From Planctomycetota bacterium (GTDB lineage Bacteria; Planctomycetota; B15-G4): a stretch of 64,000 bases of DNA. Each line of letters opens with the position of its first letter. Position 1 is the first letter of the stretch. Below are positions 10,581-57,817 of this stretch, piece after piece. The DNA lies in the NCBI GenBank assembly GCA_020638905.1, contig JACKHP010000002.1, positions 258,910 to 322,909 of the forward strand, written 5' to 3'. The translations under genes and the position numbers were made by a program. The notes under the pieces are model-generated. The model was given only the letters and a program-made list of their open reading frames with translations, did not search any database and had not been told where the DNA came from.

Positions 10581-12971
10581 TCACGGAGTGAGCGCCTGCA
10601 AGCCGTTCGTCGCGGACAGTCCCGCCGCTGCCGCGGGGTCGCTGATCCAGACCTGGTGATAGGTGGCAAGGCCCGCGGGAAGTCCGGCCGGCCACACGAA
10701 CGAGAGCGTCGCCTTGCCCGTCGCGTCGATCGGGATGCCGCCGAGCACGAGATCGGGACTCGGCACGAGGACGCCCTGCTTGAAGGGCGCCGCGAGCTTG
10801 CCGAGACCGATCACGAGCCACGCGCTCGAGAGCGCCTTGGCGCGCTGGATCACGAGGGTCGTCGTCTCGCCGGCGGTGAGCCCGCCCTCTCCGGTCAGGC
10901 TCGGGATGCCCGAGGAGCCCGCAAGCCCGGAGCCGAGCGAGGTCCACGTGATGTCGACCGCGAAGTGGGAGACGAAGATCTGGTTCCAATCTTCGTCGTA
11001 CGCACCGGGCGTCGAGGGTTGGTCGGCCGACGCCGACTTGCCTCCGACGACGAAGTCTCCCCCGCCCAGTGTCGCCACGTCGAAGATGAAGCCCGCCGAG
11101 TTCGTCGACCCACCGATGAACGTGCAGTAGCTCAGCGTCGCGCCGTGGTTCGTCAGGACGGCCGCCCAGGGATCGCCGATCCCGCCGCTGAAGTCGCCGT
11201 CCAGCGCGCCGGGGGTCGTCGGGAAGTCCGGCGACCGGGTGTTGCCGCCCACGATGACCGTCCCCAGATCGTCAATCGCGATCGCGTACGGATCGTCGTG
11301 CTCGGAGCCGCCGAGGTAGGTGCCCCACTCGAGCGCGTCGAGGTTCGGCGAGAGCACCCCGACGTAGCCATCGGTCTGTCCGCCGTTGTAGGACTGGTCG
11401 TAGGCCCCGGGCGTTGTCGGCGGTGCCGACGGCCCGCCGTGACCGCAGAAGGCCACCTCGCCCAGGCCGGCGAGCGCGATGTCGAGCGGGGTGGTCTGGA
11501 GCAGCGTCGCGTTCGTGAACTGCGTGAGATCCGCGGAGATCCGGCCGACGAAGGGGGCGTCGCCAGGAGAGGTCCAGGGTCCCGGATCGTAGCCTCCCGG
11601 CGGGATCGGGTAGGTCGGCGACAGGAATCCCGCCACGACGAAGTCGCCCTCGGGACCCGGCCTGATCCGGTTGATCTCGTCACCTGCGGACACTCCCCCC
11701 AGGAACGTGGACGCGACGACTTGGTCCTGCGGCGCTCGGCTCGTGTCGACGAGGGTCACGACCGCGTCGAAGAACTGCGACTTGGTTTCTTGGATCACTG
11801 CCGACGTGACGGGGTAGTCTGCAGAGTTCGACTTGCCAGCAACGGCGATCAGTCCTGCGGCTGTGTAGAGCCCGCGATTGATGACGTCGGACCCGGCGGC
11901 GCCGAGGTAGGACAGGTAATCGAGTGCACCGGTCGAGAGGTCGAACTCGGCGATGAAGCCGTCATAGGCTCCGCCCGCGTAGGCCGGCTGCATCGCGTTG
12001 GGCGTGGTCGGCAGCGACACGATCTTGGTGTAGCCGATGATCGCCGCCTTGACCGTGCCCTCGACGGCCAGCCTGCCGGCGAGCGCGTTCGAAGAGTCGT
12101 CGTGGGTCAGATACGTTGAGTACAGAAGCGAGGCCCCGTCGGCCGAGAGTCTGGACAGGAAGGCACTGAACAGGCCGAGACCGGCGGTCGGAAAAGCCGC
12201 GTCGCGCGTCGTGGGGAAATCGAGCGACTGGGTGCCACCTGTCAGCAACACCGTGCCGTCCTCGAGCACTTCCAGATCGGTGAGAGTATCGGAAGCGCTC
12301 CCTCCCAGAAACGTCGACCATACGAGATCTCCCTCGAGCGTGAGGGGACTCTTGCCCCGCCAGCCGGGGACATCGACCGCCGGATTCTCATCCGTGTCCC
12401 GGACGGTGAAGGCCACCGGGTTTCCGTCGATTCGCGCCGAGCGGATCGACAAGCGGAGCGACCCGCTGCCGGCTTGGCACGACAGGCCGGCGTCCGAACA
12501 ACTCGTCGAAGACACGCCCTGCAACGCGATCGGCGTGCAACGCACACCTTCGATCGGGGTGCCGCGCCGCAGCGTGAAGCCGACACCGTTCGTGCCCGTC
12601 GTCAACCGGAGAACCGTGCCGTCGACCGAGACGGCCTCGATCGTGCTCGCTGATGGCACGGCCTCCATCCGCAGCGCGCCAGGCCCGTAGAGATTGACCG
12701 GAACGACCTCTCCGATCACGGTCACCGACTCGAGGCCGCTCGTCCCGAGCCCGACCCGCACGAGCCCCGGAACCTCGGCGTCCGACCACGCGAGCCAGAG
12801 TCCGTCGCGCCGGACCTGGATCGCACCGCCCCGCATGCCCGCGGCGGCGAGGAGGTCGTCGTCCCACTGACCGACGTTCTGCACGAACGTCCAGTGATCA
12901 GGCAGTTCGGTCTGGGACGGGGCGACCTGCGCGAGGGCGGCCACCAGGGTGACGACGACGAGGTACCACAT
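10581..12971 (-). CDS. secreted SBBP beta-propeller-repeat protein with a shared C-terminal module
   Basis: Signal peptide MWYLVVVTLVAALAQVAPSQ. N-terminal FVQNVGQWDDD block. Repeated units such as FLGGSASDTLTDLEVLEDGTVLLTGGTQSLDFPTT and YLGGSEHDDPYAIAIDDLGTVIVGGNTRSPDFPTTPGA. Confidence 0.85.
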   Translation of the reverse strand: MWYLVVVTLVAALAQVAPSQTELPDHWTFVQNVGQWDDDLLAAAGMRGGAIQVRRDGLWLAWSDAEVPGLVRVGLGTSGLESVTVIGEVVPVNLYGPGALRMEAVPSASTIEAVSVDGTVLRLTTGTNGVGFTLRRGTPIEGVRCTPIALQGVSSTSCSDAGLSCQAGSGSLRLSIRSARIDGNPVAFTVRDTDENPAVDVPGWRGKSPLTLEGDLVWSTFLGGSASDTLTDLEVLEDGTVLLTGGTQSLDFPTTRDAAFPTAGLGLFSAFLSRLSADGASLLYSTYLTHDDSSNALAGRLAVEGTVKAAIIGYTKIVSLPTTPNAMQPAYAGGAYDGFIAEFDLSTGALDYLSYLGAAGSDVINRGLYTAAGLIAVAGKSNSADYPVTSAVIQETKSQFFDAVVTLVDTSRAPQDQVVASTFLGGVSAGDEINRIRPGPEGDFVVAGFLSPTYPIPPGGYDPGPWTSPGDAPFVGRISADLTQFTNATLLQTTPLDIALAGLGEVAFCGHGGPSAPPTTPGAYDQSYNGGQTDGYVGVLSPNLDALEWGTYLGGSEHDDPYAIAIDDLGTVIVGGNTRSPDFPTTPGALDGDFSGGIGDPWAAVLTNHGATLSYCTFIGGSTNSAGFIFDVATLGGGDFVVGGKSASADQPSTPGAYDEDWNQIFVSHFAVDITWTSLGSGLAGSSGIPSLTGEGGLTAGETTTLVIQRAKALSSAWLVIGLGKLAAPFKQGVLVPSPDLVLGGIPIDATGKATLSFVWPAGLPAGLATYHQVWISDPAAAAGLSATNGLQALTP

Positions 12972-26951: not shown

Positions 26952-28409
26952 TCAGCCGATGGTCATGGCGAGGCCCGCGGTCAGCGCGACGCCCCACGTC
27001 GCCGCGGGGTCGGCCACCGCGCCCTGCATGTACAGGCTCACGCCGCTGACGCCCGAGACCGGCAGCGGGAACGGGATGAGCTGCTCGCCCACGCCCGCCT
27101 CGCCCGGCGTGCCGCTCGTGGTGAACGGCACGGTGAGCAGGACGGGCGCGACGAGCAGGAGTCCACCCTTGAAGGGCAGCGCCGACGACGAGAAGCCGGC
27201 GAAGATCGCGGCCTGGCTGCCGCCGCGCGCGCCGCTCACGTGCACGAAGACGGTGGCACCCGGCTCGGGACAGCCGGTGCCCGCGAGCACCGGCTCGTAG
27301 CCGCCGCTGCCTGCGAGTCCCGTGTCGTACGCCTCGAAGGTGCCCGTGCACGCCGGCGCGTCGATCTCGACGAGCGTCGCGGTCTCGCCCGATCCGCCGG
27401 ACGCCCCCGTCGGCAGCGTCACGCCGAGCAGCGTGCCGGGTCCCGAGTCGCCGTCGGCGTAGAGGCGCAGGTCGTCCGCGAACGTGTCGAGCAGCGCGCA
27501 CTTCCCGAGCGCCGACGACCATGTGCCGCCGTTCGTCGCCGCGGCGCCGGTGTAGCCGCCGTTGCTCGCGAAGACCGAGATCGCGAGGGTCTGCGGATGG
27601 ATGCGCAGCGCGCGCGGCTCGGTGGCGTTGCTGTTCGTGTCGACGACGACGAGCAGGTCGCCGTCGGGCAGTTCGCTGATGCCGACGGGCGACTCGCCGC
27701 TCGACGAGACCTCGAACTCGGCGCAGTCGATGGGACCCACGGCGCGCGTGCCGTCTGCCGAGAGCGTGACGCGCTTCACGACGATGCCGGTGGAAATGCC
27801 GCCGCCGCACGCCGGCGAGCCCGATCCGGACACCATGACGAGCGAACGCGTGGCCTCGTGGAACGCGAGCAGTCGGTAGTCGACGAAGCCGCCGGGCTCG
27901 AACGTGAACGGCGCGGCGCCGCTCTCGTCGAGCAGCTCGTGGAGCAGGCCGTCGCCGAGCGTGTACCAGACGCGTCCGTTGACGAAGCCGCCGCCGGTGG
28001 CGCGTCCGTAGATCTTGCCGTCGGGCGCGGGAGTGATGCAGTGGAACGGCTGGCTCACGAGTCCGAGGTCGGTGAGCGAGCCGCCGTCGTCGCACAGCCA
28101 GAGATGGATCGGCTGGAACACGTCGACGATGCTCCCGACGAACACCACGCCGCCGCGGGTGCGGTCGTAGGCCAGCGACTGCGTCTGCTGCGGCGTCGTG
28201 AAGGTGTCGACGACCATCGCGCCCGTCCCGGTCGACGGGTCGTACTTCACGAGCGCGCCGGAGCTGCTGCTCGGCCCCTGGACGGTCGGGTCGAGCAGCC
28301 ACAGGTCTCCCACGTTCGGCGCCTGGCCGAGCGCCACGGACGACGGGACGACGAACGCCGCGGCGATCGACAGGGCGCGCAGCGAGGACAGCGACGGGGC
28401 GAAGGACAT
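26952..28409 (-). CDS. secreted hypothetical protein with a shared C-terminal module
   Basis: Signal peptide MSFAPSLSSLRALSIAAAFVVPSSVALGQAP. No recognised catalytic motif. The C-terminus (..ALPFKGGLLLVAP...YMQGAVADPAATWG..) is related to the C-termini of 10581.., 28608.. and 55999.. Confidence 0.75.
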   Translation of the reverse strand: MSFAPSLSSLRALSIAAAFVVPSSVALGQAPNVGDLWLLDPTVQGPSSSSGALVKYDPSTGTGAMVVDTFTTPQQTQSLAYDRTRGGVVFVGSIVDVFQPIHLWLCDDGGSLTDLGLVSQPFHCITPAPDGKIYGRATGGGFVNGRVWYTLGDGLLHELLDESGAAPFTFEPGGFVDYRLLAFHEATRSLVMVSGSGSPACGGGISTGIVVKRVTLSADGTRAVGPIDCAEFEVSSSGESPVGISELPDGDLLVVVDTNSNATEPRALRIHPQTLAISVFASNGGYTGAAATNGGTWSSALGKCALLDTFADDLRLYADGDSGPGTLLGVTLPTGASGGSGETATLVEIDAPACTGTFEAYDTGLAGSGGYEPVLAGTGCPEPGATVFVHVSGARGGSQAAIFAGFSSSALPFKGGLLLVAPVLLTVPFTTSGTPGEAGVGEQLIPFPLPVSGVSGVSLYMQGAVADPAATWGVALTAGLAMTIG

Positions 28410-28607: not shown

Positions 28608-31192
28608 CTACGGGACGAACGCCTCGAGCGCGTTGCTCGCCCTGAAGCCCTGAGGTTGCGTCGCGTCGGGCATCCACGCCTGCCAGCAGGTGGGACGGCC
28701 CACGAGATGGGCGGGCCACCCGAACGCGAGGCTCGCCGAGCCCGCGGAATCGAGCGCGACGGGGAGGATGCGCGTCGGCGTCGGGACGAGCGTTCCGCCG
28801 AGGAACGGAGCATCGAGGCGCGACGCGCCCAGCACCAGGAACGCCGTGGTCCCCGGCGTACCGCGTGAGAGCCAGAGATGGGCGGCGTCGCCGGTCAGGC
28901 GCCCGCCGCGGGCCGCGAGGCGCGGGCGCTGGCCGTCGCCGCCGAACGAGCCGCCGAGCCCGACCCAGGGCTGCGTGGGACGGAGTGTGCGCACCTCGAG
29001 CTGACGCTGGACGGCGAACCCGAGCTGGCGGCGCGAGAGGCACGCGAGCTCGCGTCCCGGTGAGTGGCTGAACTCGCCGGCCACGACGCCTTGGTAGAAA
29101 TTCCACTCGGCGCTGTCGATCTCCGGCGATGTGGCCGAGCCGGGCAGGAACGCCGTCGCGGCGCTCCACGCGAGCACGTCCGGCAGGCCGTCACCATCGA
29201 GCTCGTCGACCACGACACCGCGCGCCTCGAAGCCGAGCGGGAACGTGGCCTTCACGACGAAGCCGCCCGCGTCGCCGCCGAGCAGCGTGAGGTCGTCGCC
29301 CGCGGTGATCACTTCGGGCCGTCCGTCACCGTTGCGATCGACCGTGGCGAGCAGGTCGGAGCCGGGTGGCACCGGCGAGTCGATCGGCGCGCCGAAGCCG
29401 CCCGCGCCGTCGCCGAGGCGCAGGCCAGCGTCGCGGCTCCGTCGTCGAGGGTGAGCAGGTCGAGCACGCCGTCGAGATCGAGGTCGTCCAGAACGAGGGC
29501 GACGAGGTTCGCGGGCGTCGCCGGCAGGGCGTCGAAGCTCGGGCCGACGGCGACCTGGAACCCGCCGCCGAAGGAGGTGTACGCCCCCGCGACGAGATCG
29601 AGCGACCCGTCGCCATCCACGTCGCCGAAGTCGAGGAGGTAGTCGGTCGCGTCGAGGGGAGCCACGAGCAGTGGCGCGAAGCTGCCGTCGCCCGCACCCG
29701 CGAGCACTTCGACCGCCGCCGGGTCGGACTGTTCACCCTGGAGCAGGGCGACGAGATCGAGCACGCCGTCGCCCGTCACGTCGACGAGAGCCTGGGCCGT
29801 CGACACGTCCAGTGGAAGCGCGGGCTGCGCGTTGAAGGTCCCGTCGGGCTGCGACAACCAGCGCCAGACCGAGGTGGCGAAGAGGCCAGGGCTCGTCACG
29901 GCGACGGGGTCGTCGAGTCCGTCGCCGTTCAGATCGCCGGCCAGCAGTGTCGCCCCGGACTGGTCGGACGGGATCTGCTCCGCCTCGAGCGGCAGGGCGC
30001 CATCGTCGCCGTCGGGCGGGACGTGGCGCAGGAGCACTCGGTATGGGTCGTTTGCGGCGGCGAGGAGATCGCGCCGAAGGACGACGAGTTCGGCGACACC
30101 GTCGCCGTCCACGTCGGCGCTGCGCGCGGCGGGCAGGGGAAGACCGGACGGCGCGACGCCGGCTACGCTGACCGAGAGGTCCCAAGGCTCGAAGGCGGCG
30201 CCGCCCACGCCGCGCAGGTACACCGTCGCGCCGGGCGCCACCAGCTGCACGTCGGGCAGGCCGTCAGCGGTGGCGTCGCCGACAAACACGAACCCGCCCT
30301 TCGAGGCATCGTCGGACGAGAGACCCGGCGCGAGAAGCGCGATCGGATCGGGCTCGAGCGAGCCGTTGCCGGCGAACACACCCACCGTCGTCGTGAAGCC
30401 CAGGAACACCGAGCCGGTGTTCCAGCCGACGACGAGGTCGACGTGATCGTCGTCCGTGACCTCGGCGGCAGCCAGGCCGCACACCCGCGCGTTGCCGGTG
30501 GGTGACGACCATTCGGGCGTGAACCTGCCCGCGCCGTCGCCTCCCAGGACGAAGACCTCTTTGAGCGTCCCCAGCACGACGTCGAGGGCACCGTCCTCGT
30601 CGAGGTCGACGAGCACCGGCCTGACGTCCGCGAGGACGGCCGACGGGTCGGGAAGAGAGCCTAGGCTCGGCCCGAACGTACCGTCGCCCACCCCGAGGAA
30701 CGCCTCGAGCCGGGGACCGATCACCCCGTTGGGATGGGCCAGCAGCAGGTCGACGTGCCCGTCGCCGTCGAGGTCGCCCACCGCGAGCGTGTTCGACTGC
30801 GGCTCCGCGAAGAAAGCCGGTTGCGGCGCAAGCGAGCCGTCGCCGGCGCCGAGCAGCACCTGCACCTCGCCCGTGACCACGGCGGTGACGACGACGTCGA
30901 GTCGTCCGTCGCCGTCGGCATCGAGACCCTCGACGTGCGCGGGCGCGAACGCCAGGTCGACGCTCGCGACCTGCGTCCCGTCGCCGCGGTGGACGACCAC
31001 ACGTCGCGAGCCCCCCAGGACCACGACGATCTCGGGGACACCGTCGCCTTCGAGATCGACGGTGGCGAGGTCCTTGGCGTCGGCGTCGACGACGAAGCTC
31101 GCGTGACCGAGGAGGGGATGATCTACGGCCTGCGACCGCGCGACGGATGACACGAGCACGACGCTGACCAGGACGGCGATGACGCACTTCAT
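28608..31192 (-). pseudogene. secreted FG-GAP/VCBS-repeat protein with a shared C-terminal module; apparent 1-nt frameshift near 29421-29428 (or assembly error)
   Basis: Signal peptide MKCVIAVLVSVVLVSSVARSQA. Many DxDGDGxxDxxV repeats. The N-terminal frame (ORF 29309..31192) degenerates after ..LLTLDDGAATLA. The repeat continues (LRLGDGAGGFGAPIDSPVPPGSDLLATVDRNGDGRPEV..) in the frame of ORF 28608..29372. Inserting one base restores a single 861-aa reading frame. Confidence 0.65.
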
Positions 31193-55450: not shown

Positions 55451-55528
55451 TCGGGTTCGGTATCGGCTGCGACTGCGGAGTCGGCTTCGGCTTCGGCTTC
55501 GGCTTCGGCTTCGGCTTCGGGTTCGGCT
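55451..55528. repeat. hexanucleotide array (TCGGCT and variants), the reverse-complement relative of the 33491-33610 array
   Basis: Thirteen hexamer units: tcgggt tcggta tcggct gcgact gcggag, then six perfect tcggct (55481-55516), then tcgggt tcggct. Intergenic. Confidence 0.9.
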
Positions 55529-55885
55529 ACTCGAGCTCGCGCAACATTCGCGACGACGCCTCACTCGATGCGCGTGATGGCGCGCTCCGAGGCACATGCC
55601 CAGCGCGCTGCGAGTTCCGCAGCCGCCGCAGGCGGCGAGGACTGTCCGAAGCTGCGCGCTGCTGCGTGACGATCGTCAGCGGGCGCGCACGCAACGCCCC
55701 GAAGCGCCGCGCGTGCGACGTGGGCGCCGCGTCACGCCGCCACTTTGCTCGCGTCCGCCGAGCCGTTCATCCTTTCATCTCGCGAAGGGAGCGCCGCGCG
55801 AGCAGCGGCGGGCGATGTGGGACGGAGGCCAGGTGTTCCCCCACCTGGCCGCAGTCCCACGTCGCCCGACGCGTCGCGCACTCGG

Positions 55886-55998: not shown

Positions 55999-57681
55999 TC
56001 AGAGGATCGTGATCGCGACGCCCTCGGTGCCGTACACGCCGCCCGTGGCGAGGGCCGTCGGGTCGGCGATGAACCACTGCCCGTAGACCAGGAAGCCCGA
56101 GAGGACCGGGTTCTTCGGGATGGGCAGGTTGTACGTCGCGATGCCGTCGGCGTCCGTCGTCATGGCAGCGGTCAGCAAGATCGTGCCGAGATCGACGTTG
56201 ACGGGCACCGGGAAACGCGGATCCGGGTAGGGCGTGCCGGCCGGGTCGTCGTCGAACGCGAAGACCAGCACCGCGCCCGTGTTCGGGACCGCATCGCTCA
56301 CGCCGAGCAGGAAGTCGCCGTTGCCGAGGTTCGCCGGGTGCGTGTCGATGACCTGGGCGAAGCCTCCGTTGCCGTCGGCGCTCGCCACGCCGTAGGTCGT
56401 GTTGAGCGGGGGCAGCTCGCTGTGCAGCGTCGGACGGTTGAACGGGAACGTCCCGGCCTCGACGCGCGGGTCGGTCAGGCCTTCCTCGATGAAGAAGATC
56501 AGCGCGTCCTTCTCGTCCTGGGTCAGGTCGAGCACGAGCAGGTTCGGGTCGAGGTTGCCGTCGTCGAAGTCGCCGCCACGGCTGTAGAAGTCGATCAGGT
56601 CCGGCACCGAAGCCGCCGCACCGTTGTGGAAGAGCGGAGTGCGCAGCTTGGCGTTGCGGATGTTCGGCGTCTTGAAGCGGCCCATGTCGGCCGGGTCGCC
56701 GGTGACGTCGAAGCGACCGTGGTCTTCGGCATCGGGACGGACACCGACGTTGTGGAAGTCGTTGTCCATCGTGAAGGGCAGCACGTGGCAGGCCGCGCAG
56801 TTCGCGTTGCCCTGGAACAGCTCGAAGCCCGCCTGCATCTTCGGGTCGTAGCCGGTGAAGTCCTGGATCTCACCCTTCAGGAAGGCGTCGAGGACCGTCT
56901 CGTCGGAGATCAAGGTGCGCTCGTAGTTGCCGATGGCGAACATGACGCGCTTCGACGTGATGGTCGGGTCGCCGTAGACCGCCTCGAACATGTCGGGGTA
57001 GGTCGGGTTGTCGGCCAGGAAGTCGAGCATCTCGGCCGGCAGGTTGGTGGCCAGGGCCATCGGGGTCACGTCGGCCAGCTTGGCGGTGATCGCGTCCCAG
57101 GTGCGGTTCACGCCGCCCATCTCGACGTCGGACACGGGCGGACCCGCGGCCTGGCTCTCCAGCGCGCCGAGGTAGCCGATCTCGACAAGACCGCTCTGCG
57201 GATCGGTGTAGGCCTCGGTGGCGCGACCGTCCCAGAAGAGCTGGTTGAAGTACGGCGCGTTGATCGCCGTGGGCGCCTTGCGGTTGGTGGACTGCACTCC
57301 CGAACCGAAGATGTCGGAGTGCACGAACTGTCCGGCCGCCGCGTCCTGGCGCACGATGCCGCGCGAACCCGCGATGTCGTCGTCGGTGCCGAAGATGCCG
57401 TCGGGACCCGGGTGCGGCTTGTTCACCGCGCGCGGATCGGCGCCGCCCGCTTCATGGATGTGGCAGGTGCCGCAGGCCATGGTGTTGTCGGTGCTGATCT
57501 GCTCTTCCCAGAACAGGAACTTACCGAGCACGTCCTGGTCGGTGAGCATCGGGTTCTCGAAGGGGAACTCCGGCGGGTTGGGCATCGGAGTGTCGGCCTG
57601 CGCGAGAACCGCGGGAGCCATGGTGGCCGCGAAGCACGCCATGGCGGCGACGGGCAGGAAGCGAGGGCGATTGGAAGCCAT
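55999..57681 (-). CDS. di-haem cytochrome c peroxidase / MauG-family protein with an added shared C-terminal module
   Basis: ATG 57681. Signal MASNRPRFLPVAAMACFAATMAPAVLAQA. Haem motifs CGTCH and CAACH. FWDGRA, and PNIRNAKLRTPLFHNGA. The last ~130 aa are unrelated to CCP. Confidence 0.88.
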   Translation of the reverse strand: MASNRPRFLPVAAMACFAATMAPAVLAQADTPMPNPPEFPFENPMLTDQDVLGKFLFWEEQISTDNTMACGTCHIHEAGGADPRAVNKPHPGPDGIFGTDDDIAGSRGIVRQDAAAGQFVHSDIFGSGVQSTNRKAPTAINAPYFNQLFWDGRATEAYTDPQSGLVEIGYLGALESQAAGPPVSDVEMGGVNRTWDAITAKLADVTPMALATNLPAEMLDFLADNPTYPDMFEAVYGDPTITSKRVMFAIGNYERTLISDETVLDAFLKGEIQDFTGYDPKMQAGFELFQGNANCAACHVLPFTMDNDFHNVGVRPDAEDHGRFDVTGDPADMGRFKTPNIRNAKLRTPLFHNGAAASVPDLIDFYSRGGDFDDGNLDPNLLVLDLTQDEKDALIFFIEEGLTDPRVEAGTFPFNRPTLHSELPPLNTTYGVASADGNGGFAQVIDTHPANLGNGDFLLGVSDAVPNTGAVLVFAFDDDPAGTPYPDPRFPVPVNVDLGTILLTAAMTTDADGIATYNLPIPKNPVLSGFLVYGQWFIADPTALATGGVYGTEGVAITIL

Positions 57682-57817
57682 GCGGACCTCAGTGGTGCGG
57701 GCGGGAACGTTGGGGAGAAGGAGGACTGCGCGTCGGCTGCGGCCGCGTCCACGGCTTCCGATCCGACACGTATCGGAGAAGTCTACTCTGAGATGTTTTG
57801 AACTGTCAATGCATGGA

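Follow-up and report, generated by a model that had tools for sequence, protein, structure and literature searches.

We found that four otherwise unrelated exported proteins, encoded in a 64,000-nucleotide stretch of an uncultured planctomycete genome (hereafter the window; C12:258910-322909), end in one undescribed domain, and that this domain recurs throughout the genome, nearly always at the extreme C-terminus of exported proteins. We call it the tag domain and the proteins that carry it its passengers. The genome is a metagenome-assembled genome (MAG) of 4.37 Mb (G+C 72.5%, completeness 73%, contamination 0%), and the host is described as a Phycisphaerales-like uncultured planctomycete MAG. 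What is new here is a conserved minority of proteins that carry a canonical copy at the N-terminus, a pattern of sequence conservation that points to a position-tolerant folded module. We consider a module that tethers or localises exported proteins to be the leading explanation, at about an even chance.

A preliminary description of the window had proposed, from the letters alone, that the C-termini of four proteins follow a common pattern. The four minus-strand open reading frames (ORFs) are present, each ending in a homologous segment of ~115-125 aa with the stop codon directly 3' of the core domain, at positions that agree with those proposed within ~30 nt (Table 1). When a hidden Markov model (HMM) built from the four tails was iterated on the complete six-frame ORF set of the genome, it settled at 155 copies, each protein having a single copy and none a tandem. 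A leave-out HMM made from 114 other copies, with the window's four excluded, recovered all four (genome-wide E-values, E, in Table 1), and it found no match at E ≤ 10 among the shuffled C-termini of all 31,558 ORFs; by this measure the four tails are one domain family. The peroxidase version, singled out earlier as more divergent, indeed scores weakest and lacks the PFKGG motif. It retains the TD..G and Q.(W/F)..DP motifs and aligns to the family profile in hhalign (probability 84%, E 8e-6, 75 columns), and we therefore read it, from its sequence, as a divergent member of the family.

The core of the motif given in the preliminary description stood; its start did not, as the domain begins ~6 residues earlier, at W-x-(D/N)-L-G, and in the SBBP-repeat protein the W-x-x-L-G lead-in stretches the domain to ~10949. 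The refined consensus is (W.DLG)GLAG..G.P.L.G.G.L..G....L.L..A.P...A.LVLG.S.L.APFKGG.LVP.PD....G.PTD..G.....F.WP.G.PSG.....Q.WI.D...P.GF.ASN.L...TP. Within it Q92 is invariant, and near-invariant positions are G4, P9, L11, G15, P48, F49, K50, G52, G71, D97 and G103. More than 100 paralogues, whose identity is otherwise only ~45%, have a near-invariant PFKGG loop. The tail beyond the profile is three residues long in 88 of 118 copies, and the final residue is Pro in 86 of 118 (73%). No low-complexity linker precedes the domain in the copies of this genome.

A confident AlphaFold2 model computed from a 57-sequence alignment is all-beta, with ten strands (predicted local distance difference test score 94.5, predicted template modelling score 0.86). 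Foldseek against the PDB returned generic Ig-like sandwiches only (best E 1.7e-3, template modelling score ≤ 0.58), and the predicted model thus places the domain in the Ig-like / E-set beta-sandwich fold class, with no family assigned. The conserved polar and aromatic residues K50, Q92, D97, S/T107-N108, W79 and W94 would suit a putative binding site. Pfam-A (2025) and NCBIfam 20.0 gave no match in the tails of the four full proteins (E ≤ 0.1), and for 57 domains scanned in isolation neither Pfam nor NCBIfam gave any at E ≤ 10. A PDB sequence search with the family profile returned nothing at E ≤ 10, and literature searches turned up no planctomycete domain of this kind. The family is thus undescribed, with no Pfam, NCBIfam or PDB entry. 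An already described carbohydrate-binding or Ig-like domain without positional bias would have spoken against a sorting tag; no described family matched, the fold class is generic Ig-like, and the C-terminal bias is strong.

A genome-wide HMM count, suggested earlier as a check on position, placed the end of 146 of the 155 copies no more than 15 residues from the stop codon (135 within 5), mostly in proteins with signal peptides. The position is likewise C-terminal in 94 of 99 copies from other MAGs, and in the best 150 of 8,731 public matches the domain ends no more than 7 residues from the protein end. With the tag masked, 140 tagged genes of a crude gene set grouped into 81 passenger families, of which 60 have a single member. 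A simple heuristic detected a signal-peptide-like N-terminus in at least 122 of the 146 C-terminally tagged proteins; among those it missed are fragments of genes, the frameshifted FG-GAP gene of the window and obvious signal peptides that lack a basic residue. A shared module on otherwise unrelated secreted proteins is therefore what the genome contains, with at least 81 passenger families, mostly with signal peptides. Another tagged gene lies within two genes of 61 of the 140 tagged genes. Across the 84 full-length public members 43 different Pfam families occur, of the kind typically seen in proteins that are secreted or lie on the surface, among them FG-GAP, SBBP/DUF7948, PKD, beta-helix, GSDH, NHL, RCC1, reprolysin, Peptidase_C25, PA-IL lectin and cadherin-like domains, and no glycoside hydrolase or lyase is found among their 25 commonest passenger families.

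The tag domain is the sole large shared C-terminal module in the genome. A small family of six proteins of ~430-510 aa shares a different one (...LP..GK.GVF.LG.P..GP...Q... ending in F; C1:137628-138911, C3:49065-50366, C6:11186-12490, C12:133124-134662, C1:320670-321953 and C47:33220-34509), and the arrangement of its motifs suggests a remote relative of the tag domain.

Could the domain be a generic Ig-like cap, spread by domain shuffling and aiding, for example, folding, solubility or protease resistance, with no localisation role? The generic fold without a recognisable active site and the fact that no partner was found would fit such a cap. We nevertheless hold it to be very unlikely, given the strong motif conservation over more than 100 diverged paralogues (above all Q92 and the PFKGG loop), the strict terminal position and single copy, unlike generic Ig spacers, which as a rule lie inside proteins and in repeats, and the retention of the domain across many families of the phylum.

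Next, we examined what occupies the same position in related proteins. The SBBP passenger of the window has thousands of homologues, and those from other phyla carry at their extreme C-terminus a Por_Secre_tail (for example, residues 729-809 of 812, 514-588 of 591 and 698-775 of 778), a Dockerin_1 (1219-1277 of 1283 and 1201-1259 of 1265) or, in others, FlgD_ig. Because homologous passengers end in these modules, the tag domain fills the slot of known localisation modules.

At the other end of the passengers, the signal peptides typically end in ...A-x-A with Gln directly behind the cleavage site (window examples at 12900-12971, 28330-28409, 31130-31192 and 57640-57720). Gln is the first polar residue past the hydrophobic core in 43 of 84 tagged proteins versus 105 of 526 other signal-peptide-like proteins (p value = 6e-9). 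This enrichment resembles the "Q-rule" of Bacteroidota (pyroglutamate N-termini); a PF05096-type glutaminyl cyclase was not found in this 73%-complete genome.

Eight copies in the genome are not C-terminal. Four FG-GAP/VCBS proteins have a canonical copy immediately after the signal peptide, and so does one metallo-beta-lactamase (MBL)-fold hydrolase, encoded outside the window at C33:19901-21418, in which the signal peptide is followed by the tag domain and then by an MBL-fold metallohydrolase with an HxHxDH motif (HTHAHGDH) and a Pfam Lactamase_B match. Orthologous MBL hydrolases with the same arrangement make up 5 of the 99 complete tagged ORFs of other MAGs (L016, L019, L021, L024 and L050), and the N-terminal tag copies of this hydrolase score at E 1e-34 to 1e-39. 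Of the Planctomycetota genomes, 14 of the 56 with the domain and 0 of the 245 without it have the MBL part, which lies directly downstream of a tag match in genomes G146 and G022. It is the sole well-conserved family with an N-terminal tag. In the N-terminal copies the closing T-P motif is retained but internal, followed by a Pro-rich linker, and hence the Pro at which most copies end is a boundary of the domain rather than a free-carboxylate signal. As canonical copies sit at the mature N-terminus in conserved families, a free C-terminus is not essential. Judged from this conservation, the domain is under selection at the N-terminus, where action as a C-terminal signal is impossible. Internal positions, named in the preliminary description as evidence against a sorting tag, do therefore occur, confined to a small conserved minority (the MBL hydrolase in 14 genomes and several FG-GAP proteins).

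Mainly because of these conserved N-terminal copies, we place a folded module that binds or tethers and tolerates either position, with chances near even, above a T9SS-like export signal, which is possible but rather doubtful, and above a module that binds an external substrate, which we think unlikely. Of the proposal that this is a sorting or anchoring tag, what holds is a shared terminal module of exported proteins that is none of the known ones; a sorting signal in the strict sense of a type IX secretion system (T9SS) is not established. The domain is an autonomous Ig-like beta-sandwich of ~115-120 residues, appended once per protein to a very large and varied range of Sec-exported proteins by an order of uncultured Phycisphaerales-like Planctomycetota and by scattered other planctomycete lineages. 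With the domain as a tether, the passengers would be exported by Sec, signal peptidase I usually leaving Gln at +1, and the folded domain would then bind one shared component of the cell envelope or extracellular matrix, which may be a glycan or another polymer, or else an abundant receptor protein. Such binding would hold enzymes, beta-propeller or adhesin-like proteins and proteases at one place. We infer both the binding of a partner and the localisation of cargo through it, and the most likely analogy would be with dockerin or SLH modules, not with a linear signal.

Three observations weigh against tethering. The C-terminal bias of 94-95% and the constant three-residue tail are not required of a pure binding module and are export-signal-like. 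Furthermore, no recurrent neighbour gene was found at the 155 loci of this genome, at 79 loci of 15 other MAGs or at 12 low-copy loci. Lastly, some passengers are of typically periplasmic kinds (the di-haem peroxidase, a PQQ-type dehydrogenase and the MBL hydrolase), for which reason the compartment of the tether may be either the cell surface or the periplasm and peptidoglycan.

The first of these observations is what a true export signal would predict, that is, a domain by which cargo is recognised for an undescribed outer-membrane translocation, and perhaps attachment, pathway that would be analogous and not homologous to the T9SS. The T9SS C-terminal domain (CTD) is, like the tag domain, a small Ig-like beta-sandwich found once per protein at the extreme C-terminus of Sec-exported proteins. 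It serves tens to hundreds of cargo proteins per genome of similar classes; the tag domain stands in for it on homologous SBBP passengers, and Gln+1 enrichment is common to both. The single copy, the short constant tail and the prevalence of a final Pro also suit an export signal. The two differ in length (~115 aa for the tag domain and ~80 aa for the T9SS CTD), in their ends (T-P versus a basic residue) and in that the tag domain is also N-terminal in conserved families. A strictly C-terminal position holds for the 146 of 155 and 94 of 99 copies noted above, with conserved exceptions directly behind the signal peptide.

We rejected the T9SS CTD itself (PF18962/TIGR04183; type B, TIGR04131), as there is no HMM or profile similarity and neither SprA nor PorV was found. 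As a control, the same Pfam T9SS model does match the tails of SBBP homologues from other phyla. Aligned by hhalign with seven Por_Secre_tail/FlgD_ig tails, the 57-sequence profile gave a probability of 1% over 12 columns, and the 50 best Foldseek matches include no T9SS CTD structure. The SprA model TIGR04189 found nothing in the 73%-complete MAG and nothing above cut-off in 42 genomes of the order, although it also matched none of 14 control genomes, which thus offer no positive control; PorV (NF033710) had no match in the same 73%-complete genome.

The genome encodes at least four secretins; channels for folded proteins therefore exist, none of them linked to the domain, and a secretin-based reader would be conceivable. 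In such an undescribed cargo-sorting pathway the domain would single out 100-300 Sec-exported proteins in each genome that are to cross the outer membrane or be attached to it, with a reader unrelated to the T9SS or exosortases and possibly a secretin system. Function of the domain at the N-terminus as well would be explained by a machinery that reads it as a folded unit. We regard this pathway as a tentative possibility only, because of the conserved N-terminal copies in the MBL hydrolase and FG-GAP proteins, the missing SprA and PorV, the lack of a conserved neighbour and the failure of three candidate partners to co-occur with the domain.

These candidates were followed by phylogenetic profiling, which had been suggested against secretion or processing genes and was run for three of them over 301 Planctomycetota genomes; all three failed. 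Peptidase_C25 as an analogue of PorU is present in 39 of the 56 genomes with the domain and in 131 of the 245 without it, while neither this genome nor three tag-rich relatives from its family have it. The MBL hydrolase, being found only in positive genomes but in just 14 of the 56, is cargo and not machinery. A 1650-aa orphan lipoprotein is confined to the host's own family. Three paralogous lipoproteins of ~1650 aa, with Gly-rich stretches and no Pfam match, are encoded at C34:204013-217962 and C44:39026-44071, two of them flanking a 1382-aa orphan gene, and their family is present in 8 of 8 sampled genomes of the host's own family and nowhere else among the 301. Outer-membrane candidates picked by a C-terminal aromatic signature proved to be an ordinary TonB-dependent receptor, an alginate-export porin and BNR proteins.

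In the genome's own neighbourhood test, which covered two genes on either side of the 140 tagged genes, the sole enrichment concerned Ser/Thr kinases: 17 members of a 42-member family lie within two genes of a tagged gene, versus a 17% background (p value = 2e-4), often paired with extracytoplasmic function (ECF) sigma factors (for example, C12:63339-66392, C47:49878-52739 and C22:29101-29739). This points to regulation rather than sorting, and kinase/sigma systems of their own may control many of the tagged proteins. An apparent shared neighbour family at the 12 low-copy loci was an artefact of the tag itself and of FG-GAP repeats.

We also compared the domain with other known sorting and anchoring modules. 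PEP-CTERM, LPXTG, GlyGly-CTERM and MYXO-CTERM are, like the tag domain, C-terminal tags on many exported proteins of one lineage, and PEP-CTERM is common in other Planctomycetota. PEP-CTERM-type tails consist of a short motif, a transmembrane helix and a basic tail, whereas the tag domain has neither a hydrophobic helix nor an LPXTG-type motif. We rejected PEP-CTERM, since the tail is a soluble all-beta domain ending in ...SN.L...TP and a pattern search found no PEP-CTERM-like tails in the genome. The earlier statement that the pattern matches no known sorting motif has held up against Pfam, NCBIfam, hhalign and pattern searches, including the proposed comparison of the HMM with Pfam/TIGRFAM sorting domains. 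No sortase- or exosortase-type partner is present in the window, as also stated earlier, although no search aimed at exosortase families was made.

Closer parallels in behaviour come from modules that bind. Dockerin is likewise a non-catalytic module on many unrelated secreted proteins, mostly C-terminal with the N-terminus tolerated; homologous SBBP proteins have it where the tag domain sits here, and the tag domain would similarly bind a common partner. A dockerin is a Ca-binding helical pair, whereas the tag domain is predicted to be an all-beta sandwich; PF00404 was not matched, with no Pfam match and beta strands only in the model. We know of no cohesin-like scaffold in the system of this genome. 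SLH and other envelope-binding modules are also terminal, at either end, and the non-covalent tethering to an envelope polymer that we propose for the tag domain would resemble theirs, but they are of another fold class and share no sequence similarity with it.

If the target were instead an external polymer, such as a marine polysaccharide, a particle or a prey surface, the domain would serve adhesion in the manner of a lectin or carbohydrate-binding module (CBM) and not attachment to the cell's own envelope. In keeping with this are a beta-sandwich about as large as a CBM, its conserved aromatic and polar residues, the tolerance of either terminus, as in CBMs, and lectin-like and adhesin-like passengers. 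We judge it improbable, given that no CBM or lectin model and no specific structural neighbour was matched, that the passengers are mostly not carbohydrate-active enzymes, that there is always exactly one copy and never a tandem, and that 155 unrelated proteins, including the di-haem peroxidase and the MBL hydrolase, would need one external target. A described CBM or lectin family is rejected on the first two of these grounds.

The domain is widespread beyond this genome. Run against 1.84 billion representative proteins, the profile gave the 8,731 matches (sequence clusters) at E ≤ 1e-3, of which 748 reach E ≤ 1e-30. A scan of named genomes for PFKGGVLVP gave 139 confirmed matches in 15 MAGs, nearly all labelled Planctomycetota or Phycisphaerales. 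Among the 301 genomes sampled across Planctomycetota, 56 are domain-positive: all 16 sampled genomes of the window's own order, with at least 15 matches in all but one, and scattered other planctomycete families. One of the positive genomes (G157) consists of a single contig of 6.6 Mb, and its organism may therefore be in culture. Where a genome has few matches, these are weaker, and such low-copy lineages probably carry divergent relatives of the domain. Canonical copies also occur in MAGs labelled Pseudohongiellaceae (8 loci), Polyangiaceae and Acidimicrobiales (L005, L012, L021, L040, L045, L054, L059 and L063, JBLIMM01..., and L029 and L066), bins that are probably mislabelled or hold planctomycete contigs.

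How Planctomycetota place proteins on and beyond their unusual envelope is largely unknown, and the domain labels about one gene in twenty in these genomes. A domain model would annotate thousands of "hypothetical" tails at once and define which proteins are exported and surface-borne in a lineage that is widespread in the sea and in wastewater. The domain is also a concrete handle for finding the partner by pull-downs, reporter fusions and co-occurrence. A transport machine as partner would mean a new secretion or attachment system, and an envelope polymer would mean a new class of cell-surface tether, possibly useful as a display tag.

Table 1. Tag domains and their passenger genes in the window
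Feature	Position	Strand	Core domain	Basis or remark
Tag domain, C-terminus of SBBP/DUF7948-type beta-propeller protein	10581-10931	-	10584-10931	115 aa + stop; leave-out HMM E 1e-36
Whole gene, exported SBBP-repeat protein, 796 aa, N-terminus MWYLVVVTLVAALAQVAPSQ	10581-12971	-		passenger; homologues with DUF7948 + SBBP
Tag domain, ~125 aa, insertion in middle loop, C-terminus of the 485-aa protein	26952-27329	-	26955-27329	leave-out HMM E 1e-20
Gene, 485-aa exported protein without Pfam family	26952-28409	-		Pfam scan
Tag domain, 114 aa, C-terminus of FG-GAP repeat protein	28608-28952	-	28611-28952	leave-out HMM E 3.6e-28
FG-GAP repeat gene, signal peptide MKCVIAVLVSVVLVSSVARSQ	28608-31192	-		two overlapping ORFs, 29309-31192 and 28608-29732, frameshift between
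Divergent tag domain, ~126 aa, no PFKGG motif, C-terminus of peroxidase	55999-56382	-	56002-56382	leave-out HMM E 5.7e-5; hhalign 84%
Gene, MauG/MbnH-like di-haem peroxidase, signal peptide MASNRPRFLPVAAMACFAATMAPAVLAQ	55999-57720	-		passenger of divergent tag domain

The FG-GAP gene of the window is split over two ORFs. In a frame plot of G+C at third codon positions the coding frame changes near 29,445-29,470, and the FG-GAP repeats run on across the ORF junction; on these two grounds we read the pair as one gene of ~870 aa with a frameshift, which is either an error of the MAG assembly or the mark of a pseudogene. Elsewhere in the window, the intergenic region at ~55,460-55,540, upstream of a sulfatase-like gene, reads RSRSRSRS... 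in one frame, that is, a short tandem hexanucleotide repeat, and a comparable GIGIGI/GFGFGF-coding repeat lies in the same genome on C24, upstream of 11.7 kb.

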